In this document: positions 4,190 through 37,100 of the stretch, piece by piece | How positions within the stretch are numbered: position 1 is the stretch's first letter | Layout of the letters: each line of letters begins with the position of its first letter | IMG/VR virus record: IMGVR_UViG_3300037567_000704 | Span: 1-64,000 of that record | Length of the DNA stretch: 64,000 nucleotides | Source: a virus | Reading direction: 5' to 3' (one strand) | Program-made: the position numbers and the translations under genes | The notes under the pieces: model-generated | The model's database searches: none | What the model was told of the DNA's origin: nothing | Seen by the model: the letters and a program-made list of their open reading frames with translations, nothing else

Positions 4190-5205
4190 TGGCAGGTTTT
4201 GGTAAGGCCAAGGAATTGGAAGCAGGACTGAAGCCTAAGCCTAAGGCTAAGGCTAAGGCTAAGGCTAAGGCTAAGGCTAAGGCTAAGAAGAATGAGGAGG
4301 TTACTCATATAGATGTCTTCTCAGATTTGCGTGAGGAACTTAAGAGTCTGCATCAAACGAGACCGAAGACCCATCTGTTTGTTGGTGTAGCCGGTCATGA
4401 GAACAGTGGTAAGACTGCGATAATTCTCGATGCTTTCGTCAGAGATGAAGAGGCAACGAAGAATGAAGATACCTTTGATATCATAGATTTCGATGGTGGG
4501 GGCTCTGCTTCTGCTTCGGCATTCTACCCAGATAACGAGCGCATCAGATGCTGGGAACCTTGGGTCATGCAGAAGAACGACAGGACCGCATATGATTACC
4601 CAGAAACTCACAATCGTGTGATGAAGATACTCCAGTTCGCTCAACAGAGAGCGAGAGAACAGAACGAATCAGACTATGAAGGACCAAGATTGTGGGGCAT
4701 TCTCGTAACAGGCGTAGACCTATGGGACTCTGTCTGTGTGAACAACATGAGAATTGTAGACCTCAATCTCGCTAAGGACGGTATTGAAGCAGCAGACTGG
4801 AATAAGAAGGTAGGCCACCAATGGGATTGGGCTATCAGAAAGACAAGGTTCCATCAGATGACTGCGATTTGTCGTGGGCTTGTCAAGTTAGGAGTTCGTG
4901 TGTTCTGGGAAACACATTTGAGACTCACCAACTACTCATGGGGGAAGAACGAAGAGACCGCACAGTGGCGACCTGATTGGGAGAAGTCAAGCAACAACTA
5001 TGTCTTCCAGATTATTCTCTGTGAGAGGAAGGACTCCTATGATGAAGAATCTGGAGACATCGTGAAGAGCGAATTTACTGCAACATTCGATAAGTGTAAG
5101 ACCAATGCAACCTTGCAAGGACAGAAGAGAACCATCCTCGTAACCGAAGTTGGGAAGCCTCCTGTTTGGATAGGACTTCCAGAATTATCTGATGGAAGTC
5201 TATGA
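4189..5205 (+). CDS. RecA/RadA-superfamily P-loop ATPase (Sak4/AAA_24-like recombinase)
   Basis: Walker A GHENSGKT followed by IIDFDGG; start placed at ATG 4189 (TAATG overlap); basic N-terminal KA repeat. Confidence 0.7.
   Translation: MAGFGKAKELEAGLKPKPKAKAKAKAKAKAKAKKNEEVTHIDVFSDLREELKSLHQTRPKTHLFVGVAGHENSGKTAIILDAFVRDEEATKNEDTFDIIDFDGGGSASASAFYPDNERIRCWEPWVMQKNDRTAYDYPETHNRVMKILQFAQQRAREQNESDYEGPRLWGILVTGVDLWDSVCVNNMRIVDLNLAKDGIEAADWNKKVGHQWDWAIRKTRFHQMTAICRGLVKLGVRVFWETHLRLTNYSWGKNEETAQWRPDWEKSSNNYVFQIILCERKDSYDEESGDIVKSEFTATFDKCKTNATLQGQKRTILVTEVGKPPVWIGLPELSDGSL
4231..4287 (+). repeat. Coding hexamer microsatellite (AAGCCT)2(AAGGCT)7
   Basis: Perfect tandem hexamers encoding KPKP(KA)7K. 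Confidence 0.95.
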
Positions 5206-5957: not shown

Positions 5958-8336
5958 ATGATTGTAGATTGGTTTCATCCCGACTTCGATAAGAGTGAAC
6001 CACCCCACATATACGAGCGCACAAGAGGGGAGGATGGAATTCTCCATGAGAACCTCATACTACCAGAAGATGAAGGCTATGTTATGCCCTTCTGTTGGGT
6101 GAGGGAGGACATAAACCCAAGATTACAGTCAAGGGTATGTGCTGACTTCCCCCGAACCAACTTCCACTTCGATGAGCAAGCAGAAGGTATAGACGGAGTT
6201 CCTCTCATCAAGATGACAACAGTTTCACCAGATAACCTCTGGGAAATCAAAAACAGAATACCCACTTACGAAGCAGACATCAGTTACCAAGACCAATACA
6301 TCATCACAAGATACCCAGACGGAATACCAGAGTTCTTCCCAAGGATATGGTATTACGATTTAGAATGGGACGTTAAGGAAGGCTTCACCACAGTCATGGC
6401 TGTAGTTGATACCTATGAAGAACATCCTGTCGTCTTCGCATGGAGGGAAGGGCAGGAAGACACTATAGAATGGATAGACAGGTATGACGGCTATCTCCTG
6501 CACCTGTATGGTAGTGAAATGGAGATGCATGAAGGCTTCCTGCGATACCTAGACAAATGCAACCCTGACATCCTAGTCGCGCATGCAGGTAACTGGGCTG
6601 ACTTACCTCACTTGGTCAGAAGACTGGATAATCATCACAGACTGAGCCCATTACTCTACATGACTCCACTTAGAGAAGGAGGAAAAGACTTCTATGATGA
6701 TGTAGCACAACCCATACGAGGCAGACTTGTCTACGACAGTGCGGCTAGAGGGATGACTGGTAGTGGTTTCGAATCCATCTGGCAGAAGTCTGGCAAAGGA
6801 CAGATGTCCAGTAGAAAACTCAATTGGATTGCAAATGAATTAGAATTGGGAGAAAAACTGACCAATCGTATAAAGGGTATGACCGTCTTCAATGGGTGGG
6901 GAGAATACTTTGATGAGTTTGTAGATTACTGTCTCGTTGATGCCACACTACTGAGAGACATAGACCAGAAGTTGCATGCAATAGAATTCCAATTGGCAAT
7001 GCAGAAATTATGTGGTGTCTCTTTCCCAAGCACATGTAGAGTCACTCGATACTTTCGTGGTTTGATTGGTCGCCGCACATCATATAAAGCACCATCATCT
7101 AAGGCTATAATTCGAGAGGACCTCCAAGCCGCTTACATTCCAAAACCCAAAGCAGGAAGACATTCGAAAGTCGGACTCTTTGATTACGAATCACTCTACC
7201 CTAACATCATAATCAGTGACAACCTCTCTTGGGAGACCAAGCGCAGACATGCTGGGGATGGTATCAAGACCATAGGTAACGGGACACACTGGGACCAGAG
7301 TGAGCGTGGCCTTCTCCCATCCATAGTGCTTGAGATGCTAGCCTTGCGCGGGGAATACAAGACTCTCATGAAGAACGCAAAGAGCGAAGACGAGAGGCGT
7401 GGCTTCGACATGCTTCAAACGGCTACGAAGGTGGCGGTTAATGCAGTCTATGGAATGGTCGCTATGAAAAAGATAGGAGGAATGTGGTCTGACTTGGACA
7501 TAGGGAAGACCATTACTTATCGAGGGAGAGAGAGCATCAAGTTCCTCATGAGCGAGAGTGAGAAACTAGGATATACACCTCTCTATGGACACACTGATTC
7601 TGCATTCATACAGGTTCCATTCGATGAAGCACAGGCTTTGGCCGACCACCTCACTCAAGCAGCAAGAGAACAGTTAGACATGATTCATCTCAATGTCGAA
7701 CTCGAAACCTACTTTGACTACTGGACAAGCACTGAGACGAAGAACAGATATTTTGGTATCAAGACTTGGCCAAAGGAAGAGGCAGGTAAGATGAAGGTTA
7801 CAGGATTCGAACTCAAAGCAGCGAATGCTGCACCGATAAGCAAGATGGTGCAAGACGTAGCATTCAATCTCATAGGAACAGGGGCGACAGAAGAACAAGT
7901 CAATGCTGCTATCTATCCTATCATCAAAGCAGTGGAGAAAGGAGAGATATCCATCGAAGACCTAGCCCCATACGGGAGGGTCAAGAAGGCATTCTCTGAT
8001 TATCAAACGGTAGTGCCTATGGCTGCAAGAGCGGCGAAATACTACAACGATAACATGACCCCAGTAAATCCCTTCAGACAAGGAGACGGGGCTCAATGGG
8101 TGTATATCTCTAACACACCAGAGGACATGCCTAACGAGGTCGTGTTCCCTAAGAGAGCGAAGAATCTCAAAGCAAATGTGATAGCGTTCAGAGAGGCTTC
8201 GGAGATTCAAGAGTTTCCTATAGACTACGATGTAATCATCGTGAAGATGATACACAGAAAACTCGAATCAGTATACAACGCTATGGGATGGGAACTGAAG
8301 AATGCGTTAGCAGCGAGCAAGCCTGCTAGGTGGTAA
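5958..8336 (+). CDS. polB: Family B DNA polymerase with 3'-5' exonuclease domain
   Basis: ExoI YYDLEW, ExoIII YCLVD, motif A FDYESLYPNII, motif B KVAVNAVYG, motif C YGHTDS, KNRYFG, KVTGFE. Confidence 0.96.
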   Translation: MIVDWFHPDFDKSEPPHIYERTRGEDGILHENLILPEDEGYVMPFCWVREDINPRLQSRVCADFPRTNFHFDEQAEGIDGVPLIKMTTVSPDNLWEIKNRIPTYEADISYQDQYIITRYPDGIPEFFPRIWYYDLEWDVKEGFTTVMAVVDTYEEHPVVFAWREGQEDTIEWIDRYDGYLLHLYGSEMEMHEGFLRYLDKCNPDILVAHAGNWADLPHLVRRLDNHHRLSPLLYMTPLREGGKDFYDDVAQPIRGRLVYDSAARGMTGSGFESIWQKSGKGQMSSRKLNWIANELELGEKLTNRIKGMTVFNGWGEYFDEFVDYCLVDATLLRDIDQKLHAIEFQLAMQKLCGVSFPSTCRVTRYFRGLIGRRTSYKAPSSKAIIREDLQAAYIPKPKAGRHSKVGLFDYESLYPNIIISDNLSWETKRRHAGDGIKTIGNGTHWDQSERGLLPSIVLEMLALRGEYKTLMKNAKSEDERRGFDMLQTATKVAVNAVYGMVAMKKIGGMWSDLDIGKTITYRGRESIKFLMSESEKLGYTPLYGHTDSAFIQVPFDEAQALADHLTQAAREQLDMIHLNVELETYFDYWTSTETKNRYFGIKTWPKEEAGKMKVTGFELKAANAAPISKMVQDVAFNLIGTGATEEQVNAAIYPIIKAVEKGEISIEDLAPYGRVKKAFSDYQTVVPMAARAAKYYNDNMTPVNPFRQGDGAQWVYISNTPEDMPNEVVFPKRAKNLKANVIAFREASEIQEFPIDYDVIIVKMIHRKLESVYNAMGWELKNALAASKPARW

Positions 8337-8341
8337 TTGAA

Positions 8342-8533
8342 ATGAGTGAAGTGGAAGATGATGTATGCAAGAAGATACAAGCGAGAGCCGTAGTAGGATT
8401 AGAAAAGTATGGTGTGACGATGGAGCGAGAGGATTTCACTCAACTTGATTGGCTCACTTATCTACAAGAAGAACTTATGGATGCTGTTGTATACCTTCAA
8501 CGATTGATACAAGACGGAGAGGACGAGATATGA
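8342..8533 (+). CDS. Small MazG-like / all-alpha NTP pyrophosphohydrolase family protein
   Basis: G.EKYG....R.D....WL..LQEELMDAVVY pattern with an EExxD metal-binding helix. Confidence 0.6.
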   Translation: MSEVEDDVCKKIQARAVVGLEKYGVTMEREDFTQLDWLTYLQEELMDAVVYLQRLIQDGEDEI

Positions 8534-8721
8534 TGGATTACGATGCTATGACTAAAGACGAATTGATTACTGAAATAATGTTCTTGAAGGGGATTATACG
8601 AAAGGATAGGCTTCCAAGATTCAAACGGTGGTTGCAGTATGGTCATGTCACCAAGGAGAAACTCAAAGAGTACGGGGCAACCCAAGAACAAATTGACAAT
8701 TTTCCGAGGCCGATTAAATGA
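8530..8721 (+). CDS. Hypothetical protein
   Basis: ATGA overlaps at both ends; start reassigned to MMDYDAM after a GGAGG SD. Confidence 0.6.
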   Translation: MMDYDAMTKDELITEIMFLKGIIRKDRLPRFKRWLQYGHVTKEKLKEYGATQEQIDNFPRPIK

Positions 8722-9500
8722 AGATAGCAGAGTGCTTGATAGGAGACTGCTTAGAAGTCATGGAAGTCATTAAAGACGAGTCTATTGATTTGATTTGTTG
8801 TGACCTTCCTTACGGAACTACCAATATTTTTTGGGACACTCCCATCGACCTTGAAAGGCTTTGGGGACAATATGATAGAATAATCAAGCCAAAGGGAGTC
8901 ATCTGCTTATTCGGTTCTCAACCCTTTACGACTATTCTGATTTCAAGTAAAATAGATTGGTTCAAATACGAACTTATCTGGAATAAAAATAAGTGTGGTT
9001 CCCCCGGATTAGCCAAATACCGGCCAATGAAAACTCATGAAAATGTTCTTATTTTCGCCAAAAAATCAGGAGGAATCTACAACCCTCAGATGGTAAAGGG
9101 AGAGCCCTATCATAGAAAGTCGAAGAACCCCGAAGGCTATGTGGGGAAGACAAACGTCCATGGGTATGGGTTGAAACCAAGGAAAGAGTTCAGTAACCCC
9201 GGTATTAGATACCCAAAGAGCATACTGAATATTTCAAGGAACTTTTCGGCACAACAACAAGTTCATCCCACTCAAAAGCCGGTCCCACTTATGGAATGGT
9301 TGGTTCGCACATACTCCAATGAAGGAGATTTAGTTCTAGACAACTGTATGGGGTCTGGTTCAACAGGAATCGCTGCCGTTAATCTCAATAGAAATTTTAT
9401 TGGGATTGAGATAGAAAGTGAATACTTCGATATCGCGCAACGAAGGATAAAGGCAGCATTGCATGAAAAAAAAGGTGATTAAATGAAGATAGCAGAGTGC
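8712..9500 (+). repeat. Perfect 24-bp direct repeat GATTAAATGAAGATAGCAGAGTGC flanking the methyltransferase gene
   Basis: Identical copies at 8712-8735 and 9477-9500. Confidence 0.95.
8718..9482 (+). CDS. Beta-class N4-cytosine/N6-adenine DNA methyltransferase
   Basis: IDLICCDLPY (motif IV), HENVLIF, HPTQKP, VLDNCMGSGSTG (motif I), FIGIEI. Confidence 0.93.
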   Translation: MKIAECLIGDCLEVMEVIKDESIDLICCDLPYGTTNIFWDTPIDLERLWGQYDRIIKPKGVICLFGSQPFTTILISSKIDWFKYELIWNKNKCGSPGLAKYRPMKTHENVLIFAKKSGGIYNPQMVKGEPYHRKSKNPEGYVGKTNVHGYGLKPRKEFSNPGIRYPKSILNISRNFSAQQQVHPTQKPVPLMEWLVRTYSNEGDLVLDNCMGSGSTGIAAVNLNRNFIGIEIESEYFDIAQRRIKAALHEKKGD

Positions 9501-9611
9501 ATGTGTGGATGGAGAGGCCCAGAGCAGACCTTCAGACACAATGGTAAACCCTCATGTCCTTACTGTGGAAGAGAACTATTTGCAATGAAATGTGAGGGGT
9601 GTTCAGATTGA
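9483..9611 (+). CDS. 42-aa Zn-finger microprotein (not in ORF track)
   Basis: MKIAECMCGWRGPEQTFRHNGKPSCPYCGRELFAMKCEGCSD; AGGTGA SD; stop overlaps the next gene. Confidence 0.75.
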   Translation: MKIAECMCGWRGPEQTFRHNGKPSCPYCGRELFAMKCEGCSD

Positions 9612-10567
9612 GATTCAATCCTAACAATGAAGATAGAATGGAAAGGGATGACTATCCCTTTGAGGACTTGCTTGAATCATACGCTAAGAGCACATACGCA
9701 TGGACAAGTGCTGATGAGAACAAGATACTCAGAATCACGAAGAGCAGTCTCGGCACATTCAACTGGTGTCCCAAACAGTATTTCTTCCAGAACATCCTGA
9801 AATTAAAGACCGAAGAGAAGGACCACCACGTAAGAGGCAAAAACGTCCACGATGTTACCCAGTTCTTCTTCAATGAGATATTCGAGTCCATTGATGATAT
9901 CCTTGAGAAGATAGAGGAAGGAAATACAGACGCAGCGAGAGACAAAACACACCAAGTTATCTCTCGACCTCCTGAGCCATACGTTTTCGGAGAGCCAGAA
10001 CAAATACAGAGATGGGTGGATTGGCAATTCGATAGACTCGTTCTCACCAAAGGTGAGGGTTGGCATCCAGTAGGTAATGAGTCAGAGATACACGGCACGA
10101 GAGTTGTCGAGGTAGAGACAGATGATGGTGAGACCGTGAGTGTGCCAATTCACATGAAGGGTTTCATTGATAGGATATTCGAGGATGGAAACGGAGGCTT
10201 CGCACTAATGGAGTTGAAGACTGGTAAGTGGAAGAAGCGAAAGAACTCAGACATGAGAGCAGAGATGCAATTCTACAAACAAATGCTAGAACATAGTCCT
10301 CATGAAGAGTTCTTACCAATCACACACTGGGGATGGGAGTTCCCCGGCGGGGACATCAATGAGGGTGACGGCCCTCATTGGGATTACGAATCAGTTACAG
10401 CGAATAGATGGACTAAGAACACCCCTACGGTTGTAGAGCGAAGACTGAAGAAGTTGGTCAAGGCTCATTTAGATGAAGATTTTCCTGCGGAACGGACGGA
10501 TTGGAAATGTCCTTGGTGTGATTTTATTGACATCTGTCCCGCTTGGACATTACAGGAGTTAGGATAA
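9599..10567 (+). CDS. Cas4-like PD-(D/E)XK nuclease with Fe-S cluster cysteines
   Basis: N-terminal WCPKQY, GKNVH, GFIDRI...ELKTG, QFY, C-terminal CPWCDFIDIC. Start may be TTG 9608. Confidence 0.85.
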   Translation: MFRLRFNPNNEDRMERDDYPFEDLLESYAKSTYAWTSADENKILRITKSSLGTFNWCPKQYFFQNILKLKTEEKDHHVRGKNVHDVTQFFFNEIFESIDDILEKIEEGNTDAARDKTHQVISRPPEPYVFGEPEQIQRWVDWQFDRLVLTKGEGWHPVGNESEIHGTRVVEVETDDGETVSVPIHMKGFIDRIFEDGNGGFALMELKTGKWKKRKNSDMRAEMQFYKQMLEHSPHEEFLPITHWGWEFPGGDINEGDGPHWDYESVTANRWTKNTPTVVERRLKKLVKAHLDEDFPAERTDWKCPWCDFIDICPAWTLQELG

Positions 10568-16759: not shown

Positions 16760-17314
16760 TCAATCACCCCAAAACCCGATGTTATCAGTATATTGGGAGT
16801 ATCGCTCAGTCATAAGTGTTCTGTATTCGGAGTAAGTCATCGAGTTATCAACCAACCAAGAGTCACCCCATACAGTATCAAATGAACTCTCTTCAGGTGG
16901 TGTCCATGTTTCAAAATCTGCTACCACCACCGAGAAGGTATCATCCTTAGCACAATCTTCCCACACCAAGTCCACCACATCCTGAGCCACTTCTATGATG
17001 GTCACAGATGTGACTGCCTCATTGTCTATCAATGGCTGATGACACATACCTAGACCAAGCCCACCTATCAGGACATCTCCTGTTGCATTATTCCATAGCC
17101 ACTGATGTTCTACATATTCTGCATCAGAGTTCTGCATGATGGGCATGAGACAATTTTCTTTGAGTAGGACTGTCCACGAATCAAATGATTCATTCGCACA
17201 CTTAGACATACTGAGATACAGTTGCCAATCTTTCTCTGTGGTTTCATCTGTATAGATGGCGATTTCATAATCACCGGAAGTCCCTTCGGGGATATCAACT
17301 TCTATTCTTGTCAT
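16760..17314 (-). CDS. Class I SAM-dependent methyltransferase (spermidine-synthase-like fold)
   Basis: GDVLIGGLGLG motif I, VTIIE acidic motif II, VVADF, FDTVWGDSW. Confidence 0.8.
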   Translation of the reverse strand: MTRIEVDIPEGTSGDYEIAIYTDETTEKDWQLYLSMSKCANESFDSWTVLLKENCLMPIMQNSDAEYVEHQWLWNNATGDVLIGGLGLGMCHQPLIDNEAVTSVTIIEVAQDVVDLVWEDCAKDDTFSVVVADFETWTPPEESSFDTVWGDSWLVDNSMTYSEYRTLMTERYSQYTDNIGFWGD

Positions 17315-17315
17315 A

Positions 17316-17876
17316 TCAACTACCTATGAAATTGTAAGTCAGAACGCAATTGGTTGCGTCTGTATCGCCAGTGGAGTTGGTCGCTGTGGCCCTGAGAGTC
17401 ACTACTATTGAGTCTCCAGCCGATGGGTATGTCTGTCCACCTCGACCCCCTCCAAATGATATTTTGAGGATTTCACCTACACCACTAGATGTGCAATCTT
17501 GCGCGGTTGATGCCGTACCTTCAACAGTAGCAGTGCCACTGCTAAGACTTGAGGATGTTAGTGATAAATCCCAAAGAAAACTCGTCGCACCTGTCGCCCT
17601 GATATAACCTAAGAACTTATTGTTTGAGTTTGAAGAACAGCCGTCAAAAGCATCAAACTCGGCTACATTCATGCTATGTGTTATGGCATTACTGGAAAAT
17701 TGTATCGGGCCAACATTCATCGACCCGAAACCGCAAGAGGTAGCATCTACCACGGTGAATGACTCATCATAGTTTCCTGAAGAGCCGGTGGCAATTGAGA
17801 CATCCGTTGGTGCAGTTGCAGGAGCAGCCTGATTTCCTTGTTGAGCCACAACTCCGGCTGTGCCTATGAAACTCAT
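17316..17876 (-). CDS. Putative fibre-tip adhesin / receptor-binding protein
   Basis: Ser/Thr/Gly-rich beta protein starting MSFIGTAGVVAQ, ATGA-coupled to the long fibre gene. Confidence 0.5.
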   Translation of the reverse strand: MSFIGTAGVVAQQGNQAAPATAPTDVSIATGSSGNYDESFTVVDATSCGFGSMNVGPIQFSSNAITHSMNVAEFDAFDGCSSNSNNKFLGYIRATGATSFLWDLSLTSSSLSSGTATVEGTASTAQDCTSSGVGEILKISFGGGRGGQTYPSAGDSIVVTLRATATNSTGDTDATNCVLTYNFIGS

Positions 17877-20800
17877 GCGCCTACCTGCACCCAATTATCT
17901 GTTGAAACGCAGACATAACTTGTAGCATCATGGTCTGCTACTGCTGCATTAGCGGCCCAACCTGACACTATTGCTTCTCCACTACTGAATGCAACAGTAG
18001 CACTAGAGCCGGTGTTGTTGAAGATAGTAAAATGAGCCCCTGCTACTGTGTTTGCTGGAAGAGTTAGCGTTCCGGATGTCCAATATACATAGGAGCCGCT
18101 TTGAGCCTGTGTGAGAACCGTGTTACCTGCTACTGCTACAACATCTGCTAATTGGTTAAGCGACACATTGCCATTTGAGTCACCTGTAATCCACACAGGG
18201 GAGCCATCACCCGAAGAAATTGAGAGTTGGTCATTGGCTGTTGCGCTTGCCGCATCTGCTCCGCCAATCATAACATTGTTTGAACCGGAAGTGATATTGT
18301 CGCCAGCACCGAATCCAATACCGAGGTTGTAGGAACCCGTATTAACAGCAGCAAGTGAGTTATTACCAAGTGATGAATTGTATTCTCCTGTTGAAGTCAC
18401 TTTGAGTGCGTTGTAGCCAATGGCTGTGTTCTTGCCTCCCGTCACGGTTCCCGTTGCACCATAGAGTGCATTTCCTCCTATTGCTGTATTCTGATATTGG
18501 GTCGTAGCATAATACCCCGCTTGATAACCTATGAATGTGCTATATCCGGCAGTAGTAGTGGCTGAACCAGCCTCATGTCCAATGGCGACATTCTTATCCC
18601 CACTCGTCAAAACATCGAGTGAGTAGTTTCCAATTGCTATGTTCTTCTCGCCACCATTAACAGCACCACCGAGGGCATCGTAACCGATGGCGATGTTGTC
18701 GCTGTCCGTTGTAGCGGCATCGAGAGCAAGACTTCCGATTGCGATATTCCTTGTGCCTGATGTTATATTCAGGGCGGCATCATTACCTATTCCTATGTTA
18801 TCGCTGGCAGTTGAATCCTGTAATGCATAATTTCCGATGGCTACATTTCGCGCTCCACCAACACCATAAGTGAGTGCAAGATTACCAATGGCTACATTCT
18901 CATCGCCTGTGTTGTTGCCACCTGCTGATTTCCCCACGAACACATTGTCGTTGCTTGAACCTGTTGTCCCTCTCTTACCGGCATTCGTCCCTACGAATGT
19001 ATTGTTGCCTCCGGTATTGAATCTCCCTGCGTTATCTCCAACATGGACGTTACTACTACCTGTGGTCAATACATCCCCCGTTTCTCTACCTATCAGCACA
19101 TTGTTACTACCCGAAGTAAGTGAATCCGCAACATCATACCCTATTGCGATGTTGTAATCTCCACTTTCAATACTCTCTAATGCATCTTTTCCAAGACCGA
19201 TGTTTCCTGTCGCAGTTGATAGAGTGCCTGTTGTCGGTGCTGAACCATCGCTATCTGTCTGAAGTAAGAACCCATCAACCCAATTAGTAGCATCCATCAT
19301 CACATCCGTCAAACCACCAATGACAGAAGCACCACCAACAGCAGAACCCGCTACTGTTAGAGAACCGGGGATATTGACGACACCTGCGCTTGTTCCTGTA
19401 AGCCATGAAACCCCGCCATCTCCTGACGAGATGAGTAATTGACTATCGCCTGTCGCACTTGCAGCATCACCGCCACCGATAATCACATTGAAATCGCCGG
19501 TAGTGATATTGTCGCCGGATTGATACCCTACGGTGATATTCTTATGCGCCGCCCCACCGAGGTTATAGCCCGCCTTGTAGCCTAATCCGATGTTGTAATC
19601 GCCCGATAATGAACCATTCTGCATGGCCCATGAGCCTATTGCTACATTGTGGTCGCCAGTGTTATCTGCATTCATCATCGCCCCATAACCAATCGCTACT
19701 GAATAGACGTGATTACCAAAAGCACCAGCATTATAGCCGAAGAATGAGTTTCCATAACCTGATGATAATTGACTCCCTGCTCCGTGACCTACTATAGTGT
19801 TGTAAGCACCACCGGCTATGGCATCACCAGCATAGTTTCCAATGACTACACAGTTAATGGCACCATTAGCAGCGCCCATAGCATCGTAGCCGATGGCGAT
19901 GTTATCTGATTCGGTGTCTGCGGCATCATAGGCTGTCTTTCCAATAGCGATATTCCGAGTACCTGTGGTGATTGCATACCCCGAACCTGCACCTATGGCG
20001 ATATTGGCTTCTCCTGTTGAAACATTTTTCATGGTGTTAGTACCCATCGCTATATTGTCCCAACCTTGATTGCCCGCACCTGTTGCCGCAGCACCTTCCA
20101 TCGTACTATAACCAATGGCTATGCTACCATAACCATCCACTCCATACTTACCGGCGGCAAACCCAACAGCGACACCACCGGCAGCACCGGTTGTTACCCC
20201 CCCACCTGCTTGCTTGCCAATGAAAACTCCATTATTCATCCTAGAGTTTTGTCCTGCATCATATCCTATTGCTACAATACCAGTTTGAGTGTTTATTGCG
20301 CTACCGGCTCTTCCGCCGATTACAACACTATCCTCACCAGTGGTTATTGAATCTCCAGCAGTCCAACCTATTGCGACATTGTAGTTTCCTTCCGTCATCG
20401 CCTTACCCGCATCTTTTCCTATTGCGACATTGTAGGTTCCTTCAGTTAATGCCGCAAAAGCATCTTTACCCATTCCCACATTCCCTGTTGCTGATGATAG
20501 GGTCCCTGTTGGTGGCGCGGCTCCATCAGGTGATATGAGAATGCTGTCTGTAAAATTAGTGATGTTGCTGATTACATCTGTTAATCCATTGAGAGCAGAA
20601 GCACCGCCAACTGCTGAACCAGCGACGGTTAGAGAACCGGGGATATTGACTACACCTGCTTCTGTCCCTGTAATCCATGTAGTACCACCATCACCATCTG
20701 AAATTGATAATTGGCTATCTCCTGTTGCGCTTGATACATCAGCCGCGCCTATGACGACATTGTTTGAGCCCGTAGTGATGTTATTTGCAGCATCGTGTCC

Positions 20801-22324
20801 TATGCCGATATTGGCTGAACCTGTTGTAATTACGTCTAAAGAACCATATCCCATAGCAGTATTATTATCACCTGTGAAATTAGTGGTACCAAACATAGAA
20901 CCATAACCAAGCCCTGTATTCTTTTCACCACCTCTTGAATAATAACCCGCATACGCACCAAAGTAAGCATTGTAACCTGTTTCCTGTTCCAAATACATCG
21001 CTTGATTACCAACGGCTGTGTTTCTCCCACCGATGGTTTGAGACAGACCTGCCCCACTTCCAATAAGGACATTGTAAGAGCATCTTAATGTTCCACTACT
21101 CCAAGTGGACATGGTTTTACCTGCCTCGTGACCTATCACCACATTGTATGCACCATTTGTAAGTGCTGCACCTGCTTCATTACCGATGTAAACTGAGTTA
21201 GCAATGTCACTTGAACCTGTTATCAATGAACCTGCGGCGTTGTATCCTATTGCTATCAGATTATCAGCAGTTGTTACTGCATCTGCGGCATAGTTACCAA
21301 TCGCTATCGTTTTTTCTGCACCTGCAACAGCGCCACCGAGAGCAGAAATACCTATTGCGATGTTATCGTTTTCCGCATCGAATCCATCTGCGGCATTTTT
21401 CCCGATGGCGATATTCCTAGCCCCGCTTGTTAGCATTCCCAATGTGTAATTTCCTATACCAAGATTGTCTGCTCCGCTAACAGCACCATTTGTGTTAGTG
21501 CCATCACCATACATTGACTGATAACCGATACCCAAGTTGTCGCTGTGTGCTGTACCCATCCTGATTGCCTGATAACCTATCGCTATGTTTCTTGAGCCGG
21601 TAGTTTGCACCAGTAGTGTTTGTGTGCCTACGCCTATGTTGTAAGTCCCACTTGTTAGATTCTGTAATGCAGAAGCCCCCATTCCTATATTGGAAGAGCC
21701 CGTTACAGCCGAACTCAACGAACTATTTCCCACCGCTATGTTTGAACCACCATCTCCCGAATTGAATAATGCTCTATAACCAACTGCGACATTGTTTGCG
21801 CCGGTATTCGATTGTTGTGCTTGATAACCAATGGCTGTGTTGTAACCTCCGTCAGTCACAGCACTACCCGCCTCCATTCCGATGAATGTATTGGCATTAC
21901 TATCTACTATTGCATCACCCGCCTTGCTACCGATAACAGTGTTTTTAGTTCCCGAAGTCAATGCCGTGAATACATCCTTCCCCATTCCTATGTTATCACT
22001 TGCACTGCTAAGATTCCCATGTGGGGGAGCAGCCCCATCGGGGGATATGAGAATACTGTCTGTAAAATTAGTGATGTTGCTGATTACATCTGTTAATCCA
22101 TCAAGGTCAGAAGCACCACCAGCAGCATTAACAGCGCTCGCTGTGGTAATTTGAATATCCGTTCCGTTATCATCTGTGAAGTATAGCAGACCGTCTCCGG
22201 TATCTTTCACCCAAAGTTGGCTGTAACCTGCTGCATCGCTTTCTGCGTTCGCTTGCTCTTTCAACGATATTGTTCCGCTCGCAACGGTTAATCCTTTCTT
22301 TATTACAAAATTCTTTTCTGCCAT
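17873..22324 (-). CDS. Long tail fibre with Gly-rich N-x-A-I-G (YadA/Hep_Hag-like) beta-roll repeats, three tandem modules
   Basis: Dozens of roughly 14-aa N(I/T)AIG repeats; repeated linkers GVVNIPGSLTVAGSAVGGAS and LTDVISNITNFTDSILISPDGAAPP; GGTGA SD. Confidence 0.8.
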   Translation of the reverse strand: MAEKNFVIKKGLTVASGTISLKEQANAESDAAGYSQLWVKDTGDGLLYFTDDNGTDIQITTASAVNAAGGASDLDGLTDVISNITNFTDSILISPDGAAPPHGNLSSASDNIGMGKDVFTALTSGTKNTVIGSKAGDAIVDSNANTFIGMEAGSAVTDGGYNTAIGYQAQQSNTGANNVAVGYRALFNSGDGGSNIAVGNSSLSSAVTGSSNIGMGASALQNLTSGTYNIGVGTQTLLVQTTGSRNIAIGYQAIRMGTAHSDNLGIGYQSMYGDGTNTNGAVSGADNLGIGNYTLGMLTSGARNIAIGKNAADGFDAENDNIAIGISALGGAVAGAEKTIAIGNYAADAVTTADNLIAIGYNAAGSLITGSSDIANSVYIGNEAGAALTNGAYNVVIGHEAGKTMSTWSSGTLRCSYNVLIGSGAGLSQTIGGRNTAVGNQAMYLEQETGYNAYFGAYAGYYSRGGEKNTGLGYGSMFGTTNFTGDNNTAMGYGSLDVITTGSANIGIGHDAANNITTGSNNVVIGAADVSSATGDSQLSISDGDGGTTWITGTEAGVVNIPGSLTVAGSAVGGASALNGLTDVISNITNFTDSILISPDGAAPPTGTLSSATGNVGMGKDAFAALTEGTYNVAIGKDAGKAMTEGNYNVAIGWTAGDSITTGEDSVVIGGRAGSAINTQTGIVAIGYDAGQNSRMNNGVFIGKQAGGGVTTGAAGGVAVGFAAGKYGVDGYGSIAIGYSTMEGAAATGAGNQGWDNIAMGTNTMKNVSTGEANIAIGAGSGYAITTGTRNIAIGKTAYDAADTESDNIAIGYDAMGAANGAINCVVIGNYAGDAIAGGAYNTIVGHGAGSQLSSGYGNSFFGYNAGAFGNHVYSVAIGYGAMMNADNTGDHNVAIGSWAMQNGSLSGDYNIGLGYKAGYNLGGAAHKNITVGYQSGDNITTGDFNVIIGGGDAASATGDSQLLISSGDGGVSWLTGTSAGVVNIPGSLTVAGSAVGGASVIGGLTDVMMDATNWVDGFLLQTDSDGSAPTTGTLSTATGNIGLGKDALESIESGDYNIAIGYDVADSLTSGSNNVLIGRETGDVLTTGSSNVHVGDNAGRFNTGGNNTFVGTNAGKRGTTGSSNDNVFVGKSAGGNNTGDENVAIGNLALTYGVGGARNVAIGNYALQDSTASDNIGIGNDAALNITSGTRNIAIGSLALDAATTDSDNIAIGYDALGGAVNGGEKNIAIGNYSLDVLTSGDKNVAIGHEAGSATTTAGYSTFIGYQAGYYATTQYQNTAIGGNALYGATGTVTGGKNTAIGYNALKVTSTGEYNSSLGNNSLAAVNTGSYNLGIGFGAGDNITSGSNNVMIGGADAASATANDQLSISSGDGSPVWITGDSNGNVSLNQLADVVAVAGNTVLTQAQSGSYVYWTSGTLTLPANTVAGAHFTIFNNTGSSATVAFSSGEAIVSGWAANAAVADHDATSYVCVSTDNWVQVGA
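20532..22101. repeat. 58-bp near-perfect internal duplication in the long fibre gene
   Basis: 20532-20589 vs 22044-22101 differ at one position. Confidence 0.9.
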
Positions 22325-29726: not shown

Positions 29727-31159
29727 CAGTCTTCACCCTTGAAAGTCAATGTATGCAATTTGTTCACTCCTATCACATTGTTGAGGCTTCGCCCGATGGT
29801 TGCACTACCCGCAGCGGGGCCGATGAGGAACTTCGTATTTTCTACTTCTACCGCTCTTACAGAGATGATAGGAATGATGTTTATCTGAATGAAGGAGAAT
29901 AATGAGAGATTTTCCTCTGTGGTTTGGGAAATCTTATCTGGGTTATGAGGTGCTGAAGAGGCAATCATTCCCTCACTTACCCCATGCAACACTCCCTCTA
30001 TACCTTTCTGCACAGTTAAGAAATTGAAGTCTGACATTCTGGTAGTAAGGGTGTGTCTTGATTCGGTGATTAGTCTTTTCACCCCTTTATACAGAGCCAC
30101 TTTACCCGGTCTCATGTCCCAAGTATCTGGATGACCACTGCTCCTCAATGAACCTCTGTGTATAGCGTTGGATTTCAGAATCTGTCTTGCTACTCTCTTA
30201 GCATCTGCTTTGCTCTTCACAGTCGCATCGAAAATATTCGTGACGTTCTCTTGTATATCCAAATCAAATCTTCCTTGTTGTCTCTCGGAATCACTTACAG
30301 TTACGCTTGCTACTTCATTCAAGGATATGGAATTTCCCACAACTGTTATCTTGTTCTCGGTGTTGTCTATCGGATTGGTCTCCTCGTTACCAGTTCTCCC
30401 GAACTCTGAGATTTCTCTACTTGCTTCTGTGAAAACTAACGGTGTGTATAACAGATTAGCGAACCTGTCGAAGTATACGATATTAGAATCGTGTCTCGAT
30501 GTGAACTTCAATGCGGATATCAACGTCACCCCGTAAAAATCCTGAGCGAGGAACTTAGTCGTATGCTTTCTTCTTCCTTCATTGGTATTGCTTGGGCTTC
30601 TCAAACTACCGAGAGACACGGATGTCAGAGTCCCAACCATATCAGTTCCCAATTTCATAGCGAGGTCACTCGTTCTGAAACCCACATCTATAGGGTCACC
30701 TAGATGGACAGCGTCTCCCTTGAGCCCTATGTCATTCAAAGACCTCCCCTTCATGTTTCTGAGATTCATTTTCACTCCATCTGTGGAAGCCTCTATAGAA
30801 CTGAATGTGAGCCTCTTGGTGATATCAGCATCGTTGTAGAGTAGTATTGGCTTCTTAGATGTAGGAGAAAGTGCAGAGTTTTGGTAAAAGGGTGCAATCT
30901 TGCTTGTGTAACCGTGCCCCCTCTTGTGAGTCAATTGAACGAAACCGTCTCCTTCTACCAATTCATAAGCATTTTCACTGAAGACATTGTAAGTGGCGTT
31001 ATTCCTATTTTCTATGGTGACTTTCTGCTTGTTAGAAGTCTGACTTGAAACAAGACCATGATGCACTGCGTTGTCTACAAAAACTGGTTGTCTCGCTTCA
31101 GTCATGATTTCAACTACATCGAAATCAAACTTTCCAGCGCTCGCCATCAATTTAGTCAT
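29726..31159 (-). CDS. Putative baseplate hub (Tal/gp27-like) protein
   Basis: VYFDRFANLLY segment and AKRVARQIL helix typical of hub proteins; position downstream of Dit-like and giant genes. Confidence 0.5.
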   Translation of the reverse strand: MTKLMASAGKFDFDVVEIMTEARQPVFVDNAVHHGLVSSQTSNKQKVTIENRNNATYNVFSENAYELVEGDGFVQLTHKRGHGYTSKIAPFYQNSALSPTSKKPILLYNDADITKRLTFSSIEASTDGVKMNLRNMKGRSLNDIGLKGDAVHLGDPIDVGFRTSDLAMKLGTDMVGTLTSVSLGSLRSPSNTNEGRRKHTTKFLAQDFYGVTLISALKFTSRHDSNIVYFDRFANLLYTPLVFTEASREISEFGRTGNEETNPIDNTENKITVVGNSISLNEVASVTVSDSERQQGRFDLDIQENVTNIFDATVKSKADAKRVARQILKSNAIHRGSLRSSGHPDTWDMRPGKVALYKGVKRLITESRHTLTTRMSDFNFLTVQKGIEGVLHGVSEGMIASSAPHNPDKISQTTEENLSLFSFIQINIIPIISVRAVEVENTKFLIGPAAGSATIGRSLNNVIGVNKLHTLTFKGED

Positions 31160-34100
31160 GCGGCATCACCACTATGGTCGCTAACATTGAACGTCACATC
31201 ACCTTTGTGCCCCTTCGGATGTAACGCTTGACTAAATCTAGGCTTGACAGAAAAGTCCATTCTTTTGATTTCACTCTCGTTTTCTGCTATTTGTCTTCTT
31301 CGAGGTGCATCTGAACGATAGTGTTGTAGTGTGTTTTCACTCATCACCAAACGTGTTACTGGACTCGTAATAGTCGTCTTGTCAAACTTGTCTACTCCCA
31401 CTACTTCTGTTCCCAGAATCTTAGGTCCTTGACTGGTAGGGGTGATGGTGGAAGAACCTGAAGCCATGTAGAAGACTGGGACATATGGAGCATTAGTGTT
31501 TGGAGCCGCCGAACTTGGAAAATTATTGGAGGCGACTCTCGGAGTAGTCACTTCGTAGGTGTATATACCGTATTTTCCTCCTGCAGATGCTCTGAAATAA
31601 TCAGTAGGGGTGTTAGTTCCTTTATTGACTGTGTTGTTGTATTGGGGAGTTCCTGAAATAGTAGCGGGTAGGGTTCTGAACATCTCTACATGATTCTTAT
31701 CTAGTAATCTCACAGGTCTGAGTAGCCATTTGATGCTCTTATCACTCTGATTATTTTTGATTGTTGTTCTATTGAAATCAACATTTTGATATGGGTTAGT
31801 GGTTTTCACTGCTCCCGAAAGCCCGTCATAACCCCAACCTGTATCATCGAAAGGATTCCCATAGTTCCTAGTTTCCAAAATATAGTTACCTCCCAAAGGG
31901 CTCATGTTGCTCGTATGACTGAATCTAAGAGCAGAGCGAGGTTGCACACCGAAGGCCAAACTGGTCAAGTCGAGATGCGCTAGAGTCTGTGACCCTCCTA
32001 GTAAGCACCCATGCAAGATGGTTCTCTGTCCTACATTGCGGTCAGTATGCAGGCTGTGGGCCTCTGTATTGATTGCGATATGGTCCTTCTCCACACTTTC
32101 CACATTATGTCCGTCTATGCCTATTCTTGGACTGTTTCGGCTTACTGCGTCCTTGTGGGGACTTGTCCCGATTATCTCCTCAACCCTATCGCTCACCACA
32201 GCATCTGGTTTCAGTAACCCATGTTCGGAGATTTCGAGCCTCGCACTGATTCCTCTTGGTATTTCATCGGCCTGTAACACATCGTTACGGGGGCGTAACA
32301 GCCCTGTTACGGCTGGTGGCTCTGCCGTGTTACTGCTCAAAACTAACCCTGTAGTGTGTATTGGTTCAGAAAGTTCCGTCAGAATATCTTCATTGAATTG
32401 AATTGGATATCTGACTCCTCTACCGTTGCCCATGTCTCCTATCCTCATGGAATGAGTCGGCGCAAAAACATCCACCATAGTGTTGGTATCAGTGTTATTT
32501 ACAGCGTTTGACCTACCGCATAGCAATGGTGGTTCGTTGTCCAGATTTCCAGAAGAGTCAATGACTGGGGCGCTGATGCCGGTGAGAACCTCGTAGATTG
32601 GTTTACCATAATTCCAGATTCTAGCGTGAGGAGTTCTATTGTTGGCTCTATCGTATTCGTAGACATCACCACAGTCCCATGCTGGTCTGATGCCAAATCC
32701 ACGTACTGGAGCACGCCTTACGTCCTCTCCACGCTCATTGCCCCACCAATCCACCAAATAATACTGCGCGGCCTCAGCGAGGCTGTAAATGCCCTTTCCT
32801 GCGACCTCCCCCCACCAGTCCTTATTCATGTTAGAATTAGAGAGTAGAGTTCTGATAGGCGTTCCGAACGGTCTGGTCATTCTTCTGCCTTCGCTATACT
32901 TCACTTGCCATTCTGGTTTGTCGCAACCTAACATGCCTGCGAAATTAGTCTGTCTCTCCATTACACCGACATAGGTAGTAGTGTAAGAAACGTTAGACTG
33001 CGAGCCAGTATCTCCACCAGCATAAGCCCATGTCATGGCCTCATGTTGAACGAGTGGGCCAGATGCGTAATCAACAGTGAAATTATTATCAGAAGAAGCA
33101 TCGTCCTCCAGTTTTCCTCTACCTGTGAGAATACCCCAAGTCGGTTTGTTACAGGCTTGACGCACAGCGATACGCCACCCATACGGATATTTTCTGTTAT
33201 CACCACTATAACCTGAGCCCATAGCCGTGAAAGTGATTCCAGAAGAGCCCTGAGCATAGTTTTCATCCAACCCGTCTTCATCATTCCAGAAGTAGAAATC
33301 GTTGGAAGCATACTTTCTGGGTATATTCCATGATATGCTTGCTTGTGTGTATAGGTCAAGCCTACTTGTGAGAGGCCCACCACGACTACCACATGGCCAG
33401 AACTTGCTGAACATTATTTTCTGACTATCGAAATTAGTTCCACCCTGTGCTTCGTACCCAGAAAATGCATGAATTTCAGCACCAGTGGATGCAACACCAT
33501 CTTTATCTTCTGGATTAGGACTCTTCATTCGGAAATCAAATGGACCTAAACTCATTGCATATACTGAATCCTGATAATGTATGGTCTCAAAATGTTCAGG
33601 CATGCAATTATACGGTTTCTTATCTACTGCTCTATCAGATGTTAGATTACCCCAAGTACGAGAACTGTCGGAATAGAAAGTATGTGGCCTACCTAGATTG
33701 TAATGCCAGAGACATAAGTATGCATCTGGAATATGTAATGCAGTTGTATCTCTAGTCCCCTTCTCCACTTGTGGAAGAATCATGGTGAAAATGCTATTAT
33801 TCGTATCAGTCATCACTTTCCCTGCTGATAGGTTGTTGTATGGATGTGTCAGTCTGAGCGTTGTTTCGACCGAAGCGGCGAGTAATGCTGTTAGTTTAGT
33901 CCAGAAAGAGCCAGAGACTGTAGTTGATGTAAACTTCTTAGGTTCATTGATAGTTCCTATTTGCAATCCATACCTTCTGGTGTATGGTAGAGTCTGTATG
34001 TTACCATCTGCGTCGGTAAATTCTAACAATTGACCATATTGTGGGGTTTCTGGAAATGCACTTGCATCATCTACTGTGATTTCTCTAGTCCCACTACTTT

Positions 34101-37100
34101 CTGCATGTATAGTTTTGACTATACACTTAGGGTTTATCGAGGTATTCTGCAATACATGTGAGTATATCGCAGGGTATTTCGAAGGATATCCAGCAATTGT
34201 TAATTGCACTCCTATACTTCCGAAGGTACTTCTCTTCATCATGTAGTAGTTATCCAGACGATGGTGTGTTAAATGCTTGAAATTATTAGATGAACCATCA
34301 TCTGGGGCTATTTTGTGAACTATGCTCCACCAAGGAATATTGAGAGTGTAGCCCGGTGTGGAATTACTGAACAGTTTTGGATGATAAGGAAGTGTTCTTC
34401 TGGTGAAAGCAGGTGATTCAGTGCCTTCTACCCCAAACGGGTTGTAGAGTAACAAAGGAGGTATGTTGGTGAACTGTTCACCGTGGTCAGGATTGATATC
34501 CAGCATAACCTCATTGATGAAAATCTCACAACCTCTTACATCTGCTTGAGTTGTTTGAGCCAATAAAAGGGCAACTGCGCCTGTGCCGCTTATTCCAGAA
34601 GTCGCTGGTTTGCGTCCTATGACTGTATTCACCTGTTGTCCTGTTAGAGTATAACTGCCACCATCAACGTGATATCCGATTAATTGGTTGGAAAAAGTAT
34701 TCGGCTGTATGACGATTTGATACGCTCCTACTCTTGCTGGGTCTGGGAAAAAATCGTCCAATGTATAATTTCCAGAGGCTTCCAAAACTACGGTATGGCC
34801 TCCTTGTTGGTTGATTTTTCCAGCAACACCAGTAGATGCTAAAACCCCGTAACCATCGTTTTTCAGTTTACTTTCGAACATCAAAGTGAATGCTCCACCA
34901 TGAATATCGCTTGGACCACTAGGCGCAGCATTCAACGAACCGAATGCAATTTCTGCATCTTGTAGATGAAAATAATTAGATACTCCTGACGCTATATCAC
35001 TTTTTTCTGTGGTCGCTGTCGTATTTTCTTTGAGTAGATTCCTATCTACAGAGCCTCGCAGTGATGCATTTTCTGCAAGATGACTACGATACAGTCCTTG
35101 GTATACAGGGTGAGCCCAATGACCCGGAAGCATGGGCATGGTCGGTGTGACGAAATGATGCCCCATTCTCGGTAGAGGCATTGGTGTAATCACCGCTTTG
35201 TTGTAGATGTTGTAAGCGAGAGTCTCTGTATTGATGGTCCCGTAGGTCCCTGTCGAATACTGGGTTTTTGCCATGTCTGGGGAATTTCCACTCACTTCAG
35301 CGTGGTCTCGTAAACGACGTGCTGCGAAGAAGCGATTGCTTCCTGCGGGGATGTAATAGGAAGGAACCACTTTCAGATTCGTAATAGTTTGAGCAGCCAT
35401 GAAGTCTGTAAAATCAACGTCACCCACAACACCAGTGAATGTTTGTCCACTTATTCCGGTATACGAAGCCACTACACTTTCTTCAGTAGATGAATTGTAG
35501 ATTCTGATAAAACGCCTACCAGTCGTTGTATGAGCCATTTCCTTGCTACCGAAATCAGCAGCAAAAATATCCGTATTAGTGGTCGGCATTAAAACTGCAG
35601 CATTGACTGTCAAAGTTGTCCCACTGAAAATACTCGCAGTTAAAATTCTTGTCTCTACACCATTTTCGTGTGAAAAAACTGTCGGATAACGGTGAGTGTG
35701 ACTGTGCCCCATTTTCGTAACGTGGAAGTAGAGAGTCCTGTCATGCTGTTCGTAACTGGTTCTCAATGGAGCGTTGTCTGTGGTCTCTTTCCAACCAGCA
35801 GTAGTGCTGTCCTTGGTCAATGGGTCTATGTGTTCCCAGTTGTGGTCTTCGTATGTCGGTCCCTTTCTCGGACCAGAGACGCTGTTGTCGAACAAATTAC
35901 CCAGATAATCCTCATTCAAATCAGCATGCATCATTCCTCCTGAACCCATAGTTTCGTTCTGATAACCTTGCAGTCTATCGAATCCTGACCTCACGATGAT
36001 GTTTCCGGGTATGCTGTTCGGGTCTGGTAGTTGTATTTTCAGATTGGGGGCTATACCACTGTTTGCAAGAGACGGGGACATTCCTTTGGCCTCTCTGTCA
36101 GTTACTTTGCTGAAACCTCGAATGATGGTCCCCAGTGGGCTACCGCCCTCGATTATGTGCTCTTGCCCGGAATCATCCTTGACGGTGATTTCCTCGAACT
36201 GCATTTCCTCGTTCGGAATATTCAACACGTTTCCTATCAACAGGGGATTTTTGCTCGCTAACTGAGGATGGGCTATTTCCTGTGCTTGTAGAATTGGTAG
36301 CATAGCACTGTTTGTAGTCTCGAAAGAAAATCTCACATTCCCGAAAATCTTCTCTCCAGTAGTATACGCTACGCCGTTTTTCACCCTCGTCATCCAAGGG
36401 ACAGCGCCAAGCCCTCGTGCGTTAATTGCAGGAAGACTGAGATTTCCGCCATCCATTCTCTTCCATACTATTTGTTCTACCGTGAAGTTTTTCGCAGGCG
36501 CTCTATCATAGAGGGCGTATGCATTCACATCTCCTGCCCAAAAATCATTGACTCTCAAAGTAGAACCGTTATCATATTCTGTCGTATAATCCACATCTTC
36601 ATAGAAATCATCTGCAACATTGCGCGTCACTCCTGAGTCTTCCAAGAAGAAAGAGCCTATGGAGTGGTCAATATCGAAGAGCATATCTCCTGTTTTGTGC
36701 AATCCGGGTATGGCGTTTTCCACTGTGGTGTTGGTGGCGGCAGCCCCATGCAGGAAGTATTCGGCATTGAATGGCGCAGCATCTGCTCCATGCGTAGCGG
36801 AAAACGTGATTGAGGGAACAGTAGGAGTCTTATGCACCAGCGCTTCTACATTAGGCCCAGCATTCGCAGGTGCGATGAAACGGTCTTGACCGTGGAACCT
36901 CTCGTCCCAACGTGTCGTGCCAGCATAATGTATGGGATTTGAAACACTGTTAGCAGCCGCCCCTTTGACTTGTAACCAGTCTCCTAGAGCAGTTATGCCA
37001 TCTCTGTCATATTTTGCTATGAGAGCGCTCTCGCACTCGTAACTCACGACGAGGAATGCTCGACCCAACACCCCTTGTGGATGAGTCATGAAATCCGGTA

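Follow-up and report, generated by a model that had tools for sequence, protein, structure and literature searches.

How did a DNA methyltransferase (MTase) gene come to stand between two perfect copies of the same 24 bases, at a point where the stop codon of one gene overlaps the start codon of the next? The locus that raises this question lies in the linear virus contig IMGVR_UViG_3300037567_000704 (whole record 86,731 bp, completeness estimate 80%), of which positions 1-64,000 were analyzed and are referred to below as the window. The MTase gene follows p63, an open reading frame (ORF) of 63 amino acids (aa), and precedes an intact Cys-rich Zn-finger ORF; coordinates of these and all other features of the locus are given in Table 1. 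A one-off illegitimate insertion with target duplication, yielding an orphan anti-restriction MTase in the p63/Zn-finger junction, is probably the answer.

A methyltransferase core in a duplicated gene junction

The repeat (GATTAAATGAAGATAGCAGAGTGC) was found as two exact copies on the + strand, spaced 765 bp or 255 codons apart, and the match lengthens to 26/27 bases when one mismatch is allowed (family D12). Apart from repeats inside a structural gene for a 1483-aa protein, the window has no other exact direct repeat that is 16 bp or longer with copies less than 4 kb from each other. No third copy with up to three mismatches was found across the window, no other copy with up to six mismatches on either strand of the full 86,731-bp record, and no exact match elsewhere in viral contigs; a 24-mer match appeared in none of 100 dinucleotide shuffles of the sequence. 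Both junctions were bridged at 100% match by Logan contigs from four runs in three studies, and an assembly artefact was rejected since these independent metagenome contigs cross each of them. The duplication reported by the first-pass annotation is therefore exact, confined to two copies in the record and present in independent assemblies.

The same annotation had stated that the repeat contains a stop codon, an ATG and the codons for MKIAEC, which was confirmed by reading the ORFs at both copies: the MTase and the Zn-finger protein share this N-terminus. The 24-mer is a composite, with six bases specific to the end of p63, the ATG, and 15 bases specific to the Zn-finger gene. Its p63 part is common to L107, a metagenome contig carrying p63 (GATTAAATGAA), while its Zn-finger part agrees with the MKIAQC start of the Zn-finger gene in L001, the closest relative of the window, so the duplication must have occurred in a genome in which the two genes were already adjacent. 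In L001, where an unlike ORF of 43 aa lies upstream, the Zn-finger ORF starts MKIAQCVCGW, so MKIA(E/Q)C is the Zn-finger gene's own start; five of its first 24 coding bases differ between the window and L001. The possibility that MKIAEC is native to the MTase was ruled out, as the N-termini of MTase homologs differ and the L001 gene begins as described. With the 24-mer on both sides of it, the MTase core entered a pre-existing p63/Zn-finger junction, which sets the polarity of the event.

Relatives of the locus were defined as the 22 viral contigs with a nuclease 48-83% identical in aa sequence to that downstream of the Zn-finger gene. Searches by tblastn over these 22 related loci detected the MTase and p63 in none, the Zn-finger ORF in three and p67, the ORF upstream of p63, in ten. 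Nor was the MTase found anywhere in 21 full related records, four of them at least 90% complete, in a search whose positive control was recovered from the window's own record; L015 was omitted here, its entire 4-kb contig having already been covered by the locus search. The proposal that the MTase was inserted into an existing overlapping junction is supported by this absence from all 22 loci and all 21 records.

Removal of the 765-bp unit would, as had also been proposed, leave p63 overlapping the Zn-finger gene by ATGA, and such an uninterrupted arrangement is seen in L107. This contig (1224 bp) was the sole metagenome contig found with p63, which there overlaps by ATGA a 34-aa Zn-finger homolog (MKTVQCFCGWQG...CDGCSE), followed by another Zn protein and then by the nuclease. 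Direct repeats of this kind, perfect, 24 bp long and with a spacing of 765 bp, lend themselves to deletion by slippage or single-strand annealing, and the first-pass annotation had pictured a cassette open to precise excision. On that reading, its loss and return via the repeats might give methylating and non-methylating subpopulations. Loss would indeed restore a working ATGA junction as in L107, but deletion would be one-way: no re-insertion mechanism is present, neither a recombinase nearby nor inverted repeats were found, and the genome has a single such repeat pair. The stretch or part of it was present in 20 runs from 17 studies. Among the Logan contigs of the four runs, all those reaching a junction were of the filled form and none joined across the unit, a weak argument against the cassette given that rare variants are invisible in contigs. 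Runs that were candidates for an empty-site allele of the same virus (0.59-0.78 of sampled words) were rejected as low-depth, patchy coverage of the filled form, in contigs that by their nature cannot exclude loss. An excisable cassette is, on balance, highly improbable.

The motifs of the MTase core appear intact. The protein matched PF01555 (N6_N4_Mtase) over the full length of the family, with 123.5 bits against a cut-off of 26.7 (1.6e-35; residues 23-241, profile positions 1-220/221). Catalytic motif IV of PF01555, with the consensus (D/N/S)PP(Y/F/W), lies near the N-terminus, and in the beta-class order the AdoMet-binding motif I (FxGxG-like) is C-terminal to it. In the window, motif IV reads DLPY (residues 29-32) and motif I reads DNCMGSGSTG (residues 208-217); none of the 12 sequences aligned departs from G212 or G214. 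The DLPY form is common to the closest homologs (P0002-P0006) and to P0122, a more closely related protein discussed below, and P0008 has DLPF, suggesting a clade trait and not damage. Solved relatives include DpnA, CcrM, RsrI and MboIIA. Furthermore, GAGG is found eight bases 5' of the MTase ATG, and the end of the insert makes GGTGAT three bases before the Zn-finger ATG; by the usual consensus, this placement suggests both genes keep a ribosome-binding-like context. A poly-A tail, and with it retro-capture, was rejected: the A8 run that precedes copy 2 codes for KK, a pair also present in P0002, which ends KKGED.

The recipient is an island of small, fast-exchanging genes chained through overlapping stop and start codons. 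The anatomy would be explained if illegitimate recombination had placed in it a promoterless fragment of a beta-class amino-methyltransferase gene, comprising codons 7 to 252. With recipient entry and exit 24 bases apart, the junction would have been duplicated and two new joints created, one between Zn-finger codon 6 and MTase codon 7, the other between the MTase GGT and the GATTAA of the end of p63. The fragment may have been ligated into a staggered break with fill-in repair; alternatively, replication may have switched template twice, re-entering the recipient 24 bases upstream of its exit. The left copy would then give the core a p63-coupled ATG and the six-residue Zn-finger leader, while the right copy would give the MTase its stop and rebuild the intact Zn-finger gene directly behind it. 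Selection could account for the left joint being in frame, because the enzyme is made only if it is. The orphan MTase would presumably be expressed, through translational coupling, within an operon of replication genes.

Origin and probable role of the methyltransferase

The MTase core is of foreign origin. Its best matches among isolates were in the T4-like cyanophages S-RIM12, Syn33 and S-MbCM100 (72-73% aa identity over 96-97% of the length), and 44 isolate records held an MTase match of 60-80%. A search of 5.8 billion clustered proteins gave a best identity of 79% outside the MTase's own 90% cluster (P0002-P0005). DNA encoding P0122 and the 79% clade was sought in viral and genome contigs and not found; the best genome match (73%) was to a Candidatus Actinomarina single-cell assembly.

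Homology of the window MTase runs from residue 7-9 to about residue 245-248. The N-termini of homologs are unrelated to it (e.g. MMDLKNYNLQLGDCLE), and their C-termini are 10-20 residues longer. In Prochlorococcus phage Syn33 the dam gene (Syn33_058) follows a gene annotated as 'restriction endonuclease' (REase; Syn33_057) and overlaps it by its first 23 bases, and the window core begins approximately two codons past the point where the Syn33 REase gene ends. These limits of homology indicate a captured core without its own start, to which copy 2 supplied the stop.

A homolog of the Syn33 REase was not found by tblastn in the 86.7-kb record (best E = 2.3). The neighbours of the MTase are p63 and the Zn-finger gene, and the nearby PD-(D/E)XK nuclease occurs in every one of the 22 relatives, which lack the MTase. 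Since an adjoining REase is lacking and the nuclease belongs to MTase-less relatives too, the locus is not a type II restriction-modification (R-M) pair. No transposase or integrase was detected among the 39 ORFs scanned, a set limited outside the island to ORFs of at least 100 aa. The earlier observation that the MTase is accompanied by no transposase, integrase or cognate restriction enzyme was thus borne out by the ORF scans and the tblastn search. Neither inverted repeats at the ends of the 765-bp unit, nor a palindrome at or in the 24-mer, nor a stem-loop was found. Promoter-like sites (3 against 3.9 expected) and terminator-like sites (1 against 1.3) showed no excess and none lay at the repeats, in a sigma-70 scan that may not suit an archaeal virus. 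With only two copies of the repeat, no transposase or integrase, no inverted repeats and no promoter/terminator pattern, no process encoded by a mobile element is indicated.

The 86,731-bp genome contains no GATC where about 494 would be expected, 22 GTAC against about 207 expected, and 163 GTNNAC against 278 expected. All 13 of the relatives' loci counted likewise have no GATC; GTAC is absent from L006, L012 and L022 and occurs 26-59 times per 11 kb in other relatives. These counts suggest GATC avoidance is family-wide and GTAC avoidance lineage-specific. Because the genome has no GATC, the MTase does not serve as a GATC-specific Dam on its own genome. In a virus that already avoids GATC and GTAC, the most likely role of the enzyme would be to modify the viral genome at another short motif, which would protect that genome against host restriction. 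The MTase is a new member of an established family, and viruses are well known to carry orphan MTases.

The recipient island and the age of the insertion

The order of family B DNA polymerase (PolB), nuclease and a conserved 368-aa protein was kept in the 22 related contigs. The gap between PolB and nuclease ranges from 447 to 1743 bp across relatives, and the small genes within it differ (Zn-ribbon, small membrane-like and p67-like proteins). In the window this gap is 1263 bp, or 498 bp minus the 765-bp unit. The TGA stop of p67 overlaps the ATG of p63, and the 3' end of the Zn-finger ORF, for which Pfam gave only weak hints under the cut-offs, overlaps the start of the nuclease gene.

Exchange within this island was evident from p63. 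Window positions 8527-8722 and L107 positions 338-533 are identical at 194 of 196 nucleotides, in a contig otherwise distant from the window (16/42 residues identical in the Zn-finger protein and 42/108 in the nuclease N-terminus, i.e. flanks of about 38% aa identity). The block starts at GATATGATGG, where the stop of the previous gene overlaps the p63 ATG, and extends 11 bases into the 24-mer, up to GATTAAATGAA. Such identity amid diverged flanks, bounded at start and stop, suggests p63 is a recently exchanged single-gene module. The p63 family comprised only three protein clusters in a profile search; in viral contigs, p63 relatives were limited to three weak partial matches, which were not used. 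As a separate observation, L017 contains a perfect 32-bp direct repeat (positions 1833-1864 and 1994-2025) with an ATGA junction at its end. The ORF of 54 aa between its two copies is a diverged duplicate of the C-terminal portion of the gene before it, which makes this a second junction duplication in the island. The PolB-nuclease island, with an MTase capture and a 99%-identical 196-bp module, offers a place for studying gene exchange at stop/start overlaps.

The first-pass annotation had described the MTase as more A/T-run-rich than its flanks and as recently acquired. Among the 42 ORFs of 150 aa or more (mean GC content 45.9%, standard deviation 2.3) it has the lowest value, 40.8%, in partial agreement with the former, but third-position GC (rank 13 of 42) and fit to codon usage (rank 20 of 42) are typical of the genome. 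The gene contains neither GATC nor GTAC, and each of 62 distinct homolog genes carries 1-10 GATC (mean 5.2); these were drawn from 80 loci, with alignments of at least 650 bases and duplicates removed. The absence of GATC, the typical codons and the existence of P0122 at 88% identity suggest the MTase has already resided in GATC-free viruses for some time. The two repeat copies, on the other hand, are identical at 24 of 24 positions although the MTase leader is little constrained, the N-termini of homologs varying freely, and although the Zn-finger start has changed at five of 24 bases between the window and L001. The claim of recent acquisition therefore divides: perfect repeats speak for it, while an adapted gene, a nearest homolog at 79% and a second lineage at 88% speak against it. 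From these sequence comparisons, the arrival of the MTase in GATC-free viruses would not be recent, and the duplication itself looks young.

The second lineage is represented by P0122, a 264-aa protein encoded on a 265,630-bp ENA contig, 88% identical to the window MTase and within the same 90% cluster. P0122 starts MVDCDDMAKEELIDEIRLL, continues TGDCLEVMK... and ends NEKR-stop. Its leader joins the core at the same position as in the window, just before (I/T)GDCLE, and its first 19 residues match the N-terminus of p63 (MMDYDAMTKDELITEIMFL) at 12 of 19 positions; their likeness to P0128 is similar. One candidate explanation is that an ancestor arranged like the window lost the stretch between p63 codon 19 and MTase codon 7 by in-frame deletion. 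These two codons both read TTG in the window, and NEKR-stop is obtainable from the window's ...GAAAAAAAAGGTGATTAA with the A-run two bases shorter. This explanation is weakly favoured because a stand-alone p63-like protein with the P0122 N-terminus was not found: residues 1-40 searched against shorter proteins gave one hit, an MTase fragment, in a word-based search that could miss such a protein, and none of the three clusters from the p63 profile search was on a 265,630-bp contig. The other candidate explanation is that the start of a gene lying downstream was captured a second time, independently; this, or a later reset of copy 1 during exchange of the p63 allele, is weakly favoured by the contrast between perfect repeats and 12% divergence.

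Several points weigh against the favoured one-off insertion. The p63-like leader of P0122, at the same core boundary, could mean repeated capture, and perfect 24/24 repeats fit poorly with an insertion that predates 12% aa divergence from P0122; either the arrangements of the two lineages were gained separately or the repeats were re-homogenised. In addition, the closest match outside the MTase's own cluster is, at 79% aa identity, too distant to reveal microhomology at the joints, so that the joining mechanism proposed above is put forward as an inference. Lastly, the recipient is an archaeal virus and the nearest isolate homologs are in viruses of cyanobacteria.

Two further alternatives were weighed. 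The first is that a start-less MTase core relocates repeatedly within the virus family, duplicating the first codons of the gene it lands before: six from the Zn-finger gene in the window and, in the P0122 lineage, 19 from a p63-like gene. The p63-like leader (12/19) at the same boundary fits this, as do perfect window repeats despite the 12% MTase difference, which would be expected of separate, younger insertions, and the two other junction-bounded events in the island, the p63 module (194/196) and the 32-bp repeat of L017. Against it stand the failure to find a stand-alone p63-like protein with the P0122 N-terminus, the simple in-frame deletion that gives the same fusion (TTG at both positions), the two-base A-run shortening that explains NEKR-stop, and the absence of the MTase anywhere in the 21 relatives. 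Relocation of this kind is accordingly doubtful. A still broader formulation, to which little credence is given, would make the core a minimal mobile gene, a start-less and stop-less ORF 'booting' at overlapping-gene junctions of archaeal virus genomes by duplicating the downstream start, with the island duplications and the p63 exchange as products of one junction-directed process of the replication machinery. If a second independent start capture did occur in the P0122 lineage, it would represent a new mode of gene mobility.

The second alternative is an old insertion predating the split of the window and P0122 lineages, with copy 1 reset later by replacement of the p63 allele from an empty-site relative or by gene conversion. 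The exchange of p63 between distant relatives, with its right breakpoint within the 24-mer, is consistent with such a reset, as are the good adaptation of the MTase to the genome and the adjacency of p63 and MTase that P0122 shows in a second lineage. An extra event is required, however; no close relative was found that combines an empty site with this Zn-finger start, and the exact 24-mer is lacking from other viral contigs. An old insertion of this type is judged unlikely, and a one-off illegitimate insertion with target duplication is retained as the probable reading.

Features of the window and comparison with known systems

Table 1. Features of the methyltransferase locus, with positions numbered along the window
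Feature	Position	Strand	Description
PolB, conserved left anchor	5958..8336	+	PF00136 at 1.3e-34; 50-81% aa identical in relatives covering PolB
p67, small ORF, no assigned function	8330..8533	+	tblastn match in 10/22 related loci; PHROG families of unknown function
p63, 63 aa	8530..8721	+	No Pfam or PHROG family; stop overlaps MTase ATG as ATGA
Repeat copy 1	8712-8735	+	End of p63 (PIK, TGA stop) plus MTase ATG and codons 2-6
Chimeric MTase ORF, 254 aa	8718..9482	+	Zn-finger leader MKIAEC, foreign core, last codon and stop from repeat
Foreign MTase core, 741 bp	8736..9476	+	Own start and stop codons absent; homologs align from residue 8-9 to ~244-248
Repeat copy 2	9477-9500	+	GAT TAA (MTase last codon, stop) plus native Zn-finger ATG and codons 2-6
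Zn-finger (Cys-rich) ORF, 42 aa, intact	9483..9611	+	Homologs in same place in L001, L002, L003, L107
PD-(D/E)XK Cas4-like nuclease, conserved right anchor	9599..10567	+	PF12705 at 5.1e-21; 22 related viral contigs, 48-83% aa
Contigs bridging left junction	8663-8953; 8693-8887; 8577-8859		X12 record 4; X16 record 12; X17 record 21, respectively
Contigs bridging right junction	9098-10400; 9338-9860; 8858-9514		X12 record 6; X16 record 13; X13 record 8, respectively

Besides the PF00136 polymerase and the PF12705 nuclease, the record encodes a clamp loader, an HK97-type major head protein, a prohead protease, tail proteins, a Cpn60/TCP-1 chaperonin (Cpn60_TCP1) and an ERCC4-HhH nuclease. All 11 matches of the capsid protein in a collection of isolate phages were to archaeal tailed viruses, the best being Haloarcula viruses at 31-32% identity. 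In PMC5434244, magroviruses are described as viruses of Marine Group II archaea (Poseidoniales), with capsid proteins approximately 33% identical only to those of haloarchaeal viruses and with PolB, clamp loader and chaperonin genes. As the capsid matches and gene set agree with that description, the virus is probably a magrovirus-like archaeal tailed virus, with a presumably archaeal host.

Additional features of the window were noted. An ORF of 5598 aa is located at 31156-47952 (-), inside the structural module. The 1483-aa protein mentioned above (17873-22324, -) is virion- or tail-spike-like and contains many diverged internal repeats, including exact copies of 46 bp and 23 bp (families D2-D11). 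A second, unrelated methyltransferase-like ORF at 16760-17314 (-) matched phrog_15480 at 1.7e-14 and had no Pfam match at E <= 0.001. Short in-frame tandem repeats with 12-base spacing, of the CTAAGG type and the CTCAGGTTCAGG type, occur within ORFs at 4229-4291 and 50915-51025 (family D1).

Direct target duplications flank the captured gene in transposon insertions and in poxvirus capture by retrotransposition, and the window resembles both in this respect; unlike them, it has no transposase, terminal inverted repeats or poly-A tail. Typical transposase duplications are shorter than 24 bp. An insertion sequence, transposon or miniature inverted-repeat transposable element (MITE) was rejected in view of the missing transposase and terminal inverted repeats, an insert that is a bare ORF core, and the 24-bp length of the duplication. 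An integron cassette was likewise rejected, there being no attC-like palindrome at the 24-mer and no integrase among the 39 ORFs scanned.

The R-M pair of the cyanomyoviruses Syn33 and S-RIM12 is similar to the window gene in its PF01555 MTase, in length and in a core 72-73% identical in aa sequence. Unlike that pair, the window has only the modification half, and a recipient leader replaces the first codons that overlap the REase gene. Furthermore, motif IV is DLPY in the window and DPPY in the cyanomyovirus MTase, the window virus is archaeal, and its gene contains no GATC. A methylase type common in cyanophages is now fully adapted in an apparently archaeal virus of GATC-free relatives (13 loci counted).

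Phages and archaeal tailed viruses use orphan MTases for self-protection. Those of haloarchaeal tailed viruses, as covered in Liu et al. 2021 (PMC8651126), are comparable to that of the window in having no nuclease partner and in belonging to genomes that avoid restriction sites. In that account, carriers of a Dam-type MTase are GATC-rich and non-carriers are without GATC; unlike those Dam carriers, the window virus has an MTase yet contains no GATC. The main text of three magrovirus papers, whose supplementary gene tables may list such genes, makes no mention of a methyltransferase or methylase.

Cassettes of promoter plus stem-loop (PeSLs), present in multiple copies in T4-type phages, are associated with modular shuffling and mini-circles in Arbiol et al. 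2010 (PMC2839356). As in the window island, small non-essential genes are gained and lost between short repeats in a hyperplastic region, and the repeats could release a circle. Unlike PeSLs, the window repeat is one duplicated coding junction, in two copies, without a promoter or terminator signal or a stem-loop. A PeSL cassette was rejected on the grounds of the copy number and the lack of promoter/terminator excess.

A further comparison is with phage mosaicism. Illegitimate or homeologous recombination at gene boundaries is said to underlie such mosaicism, in the model that goes by the names of Hendrix and Hatfull and reportedly also in the work of Martinsohn et al. from 2008. The window shares with it joints that lie exactly at gene borders, and the breakpoints of the p63 module are at a start and a stop. 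Unlike plain mosaicism, the window footprint is kept as a 24-bp target duplication from which the incoming ORF takes its start, leader and stop, and the insertion is best classed as illegitimate-recombination mosaicism with an unusually legible footprint. It is a rare case in which gene capture in a virus of uncultured archaea can be read base by base. Still visible are the junction that was hit, the 24 bases that were doubled there and the start and stop that the core borrowed from them, as well as what the donor gene did not bring along, the stretch in which it overlapped a restriction gene.

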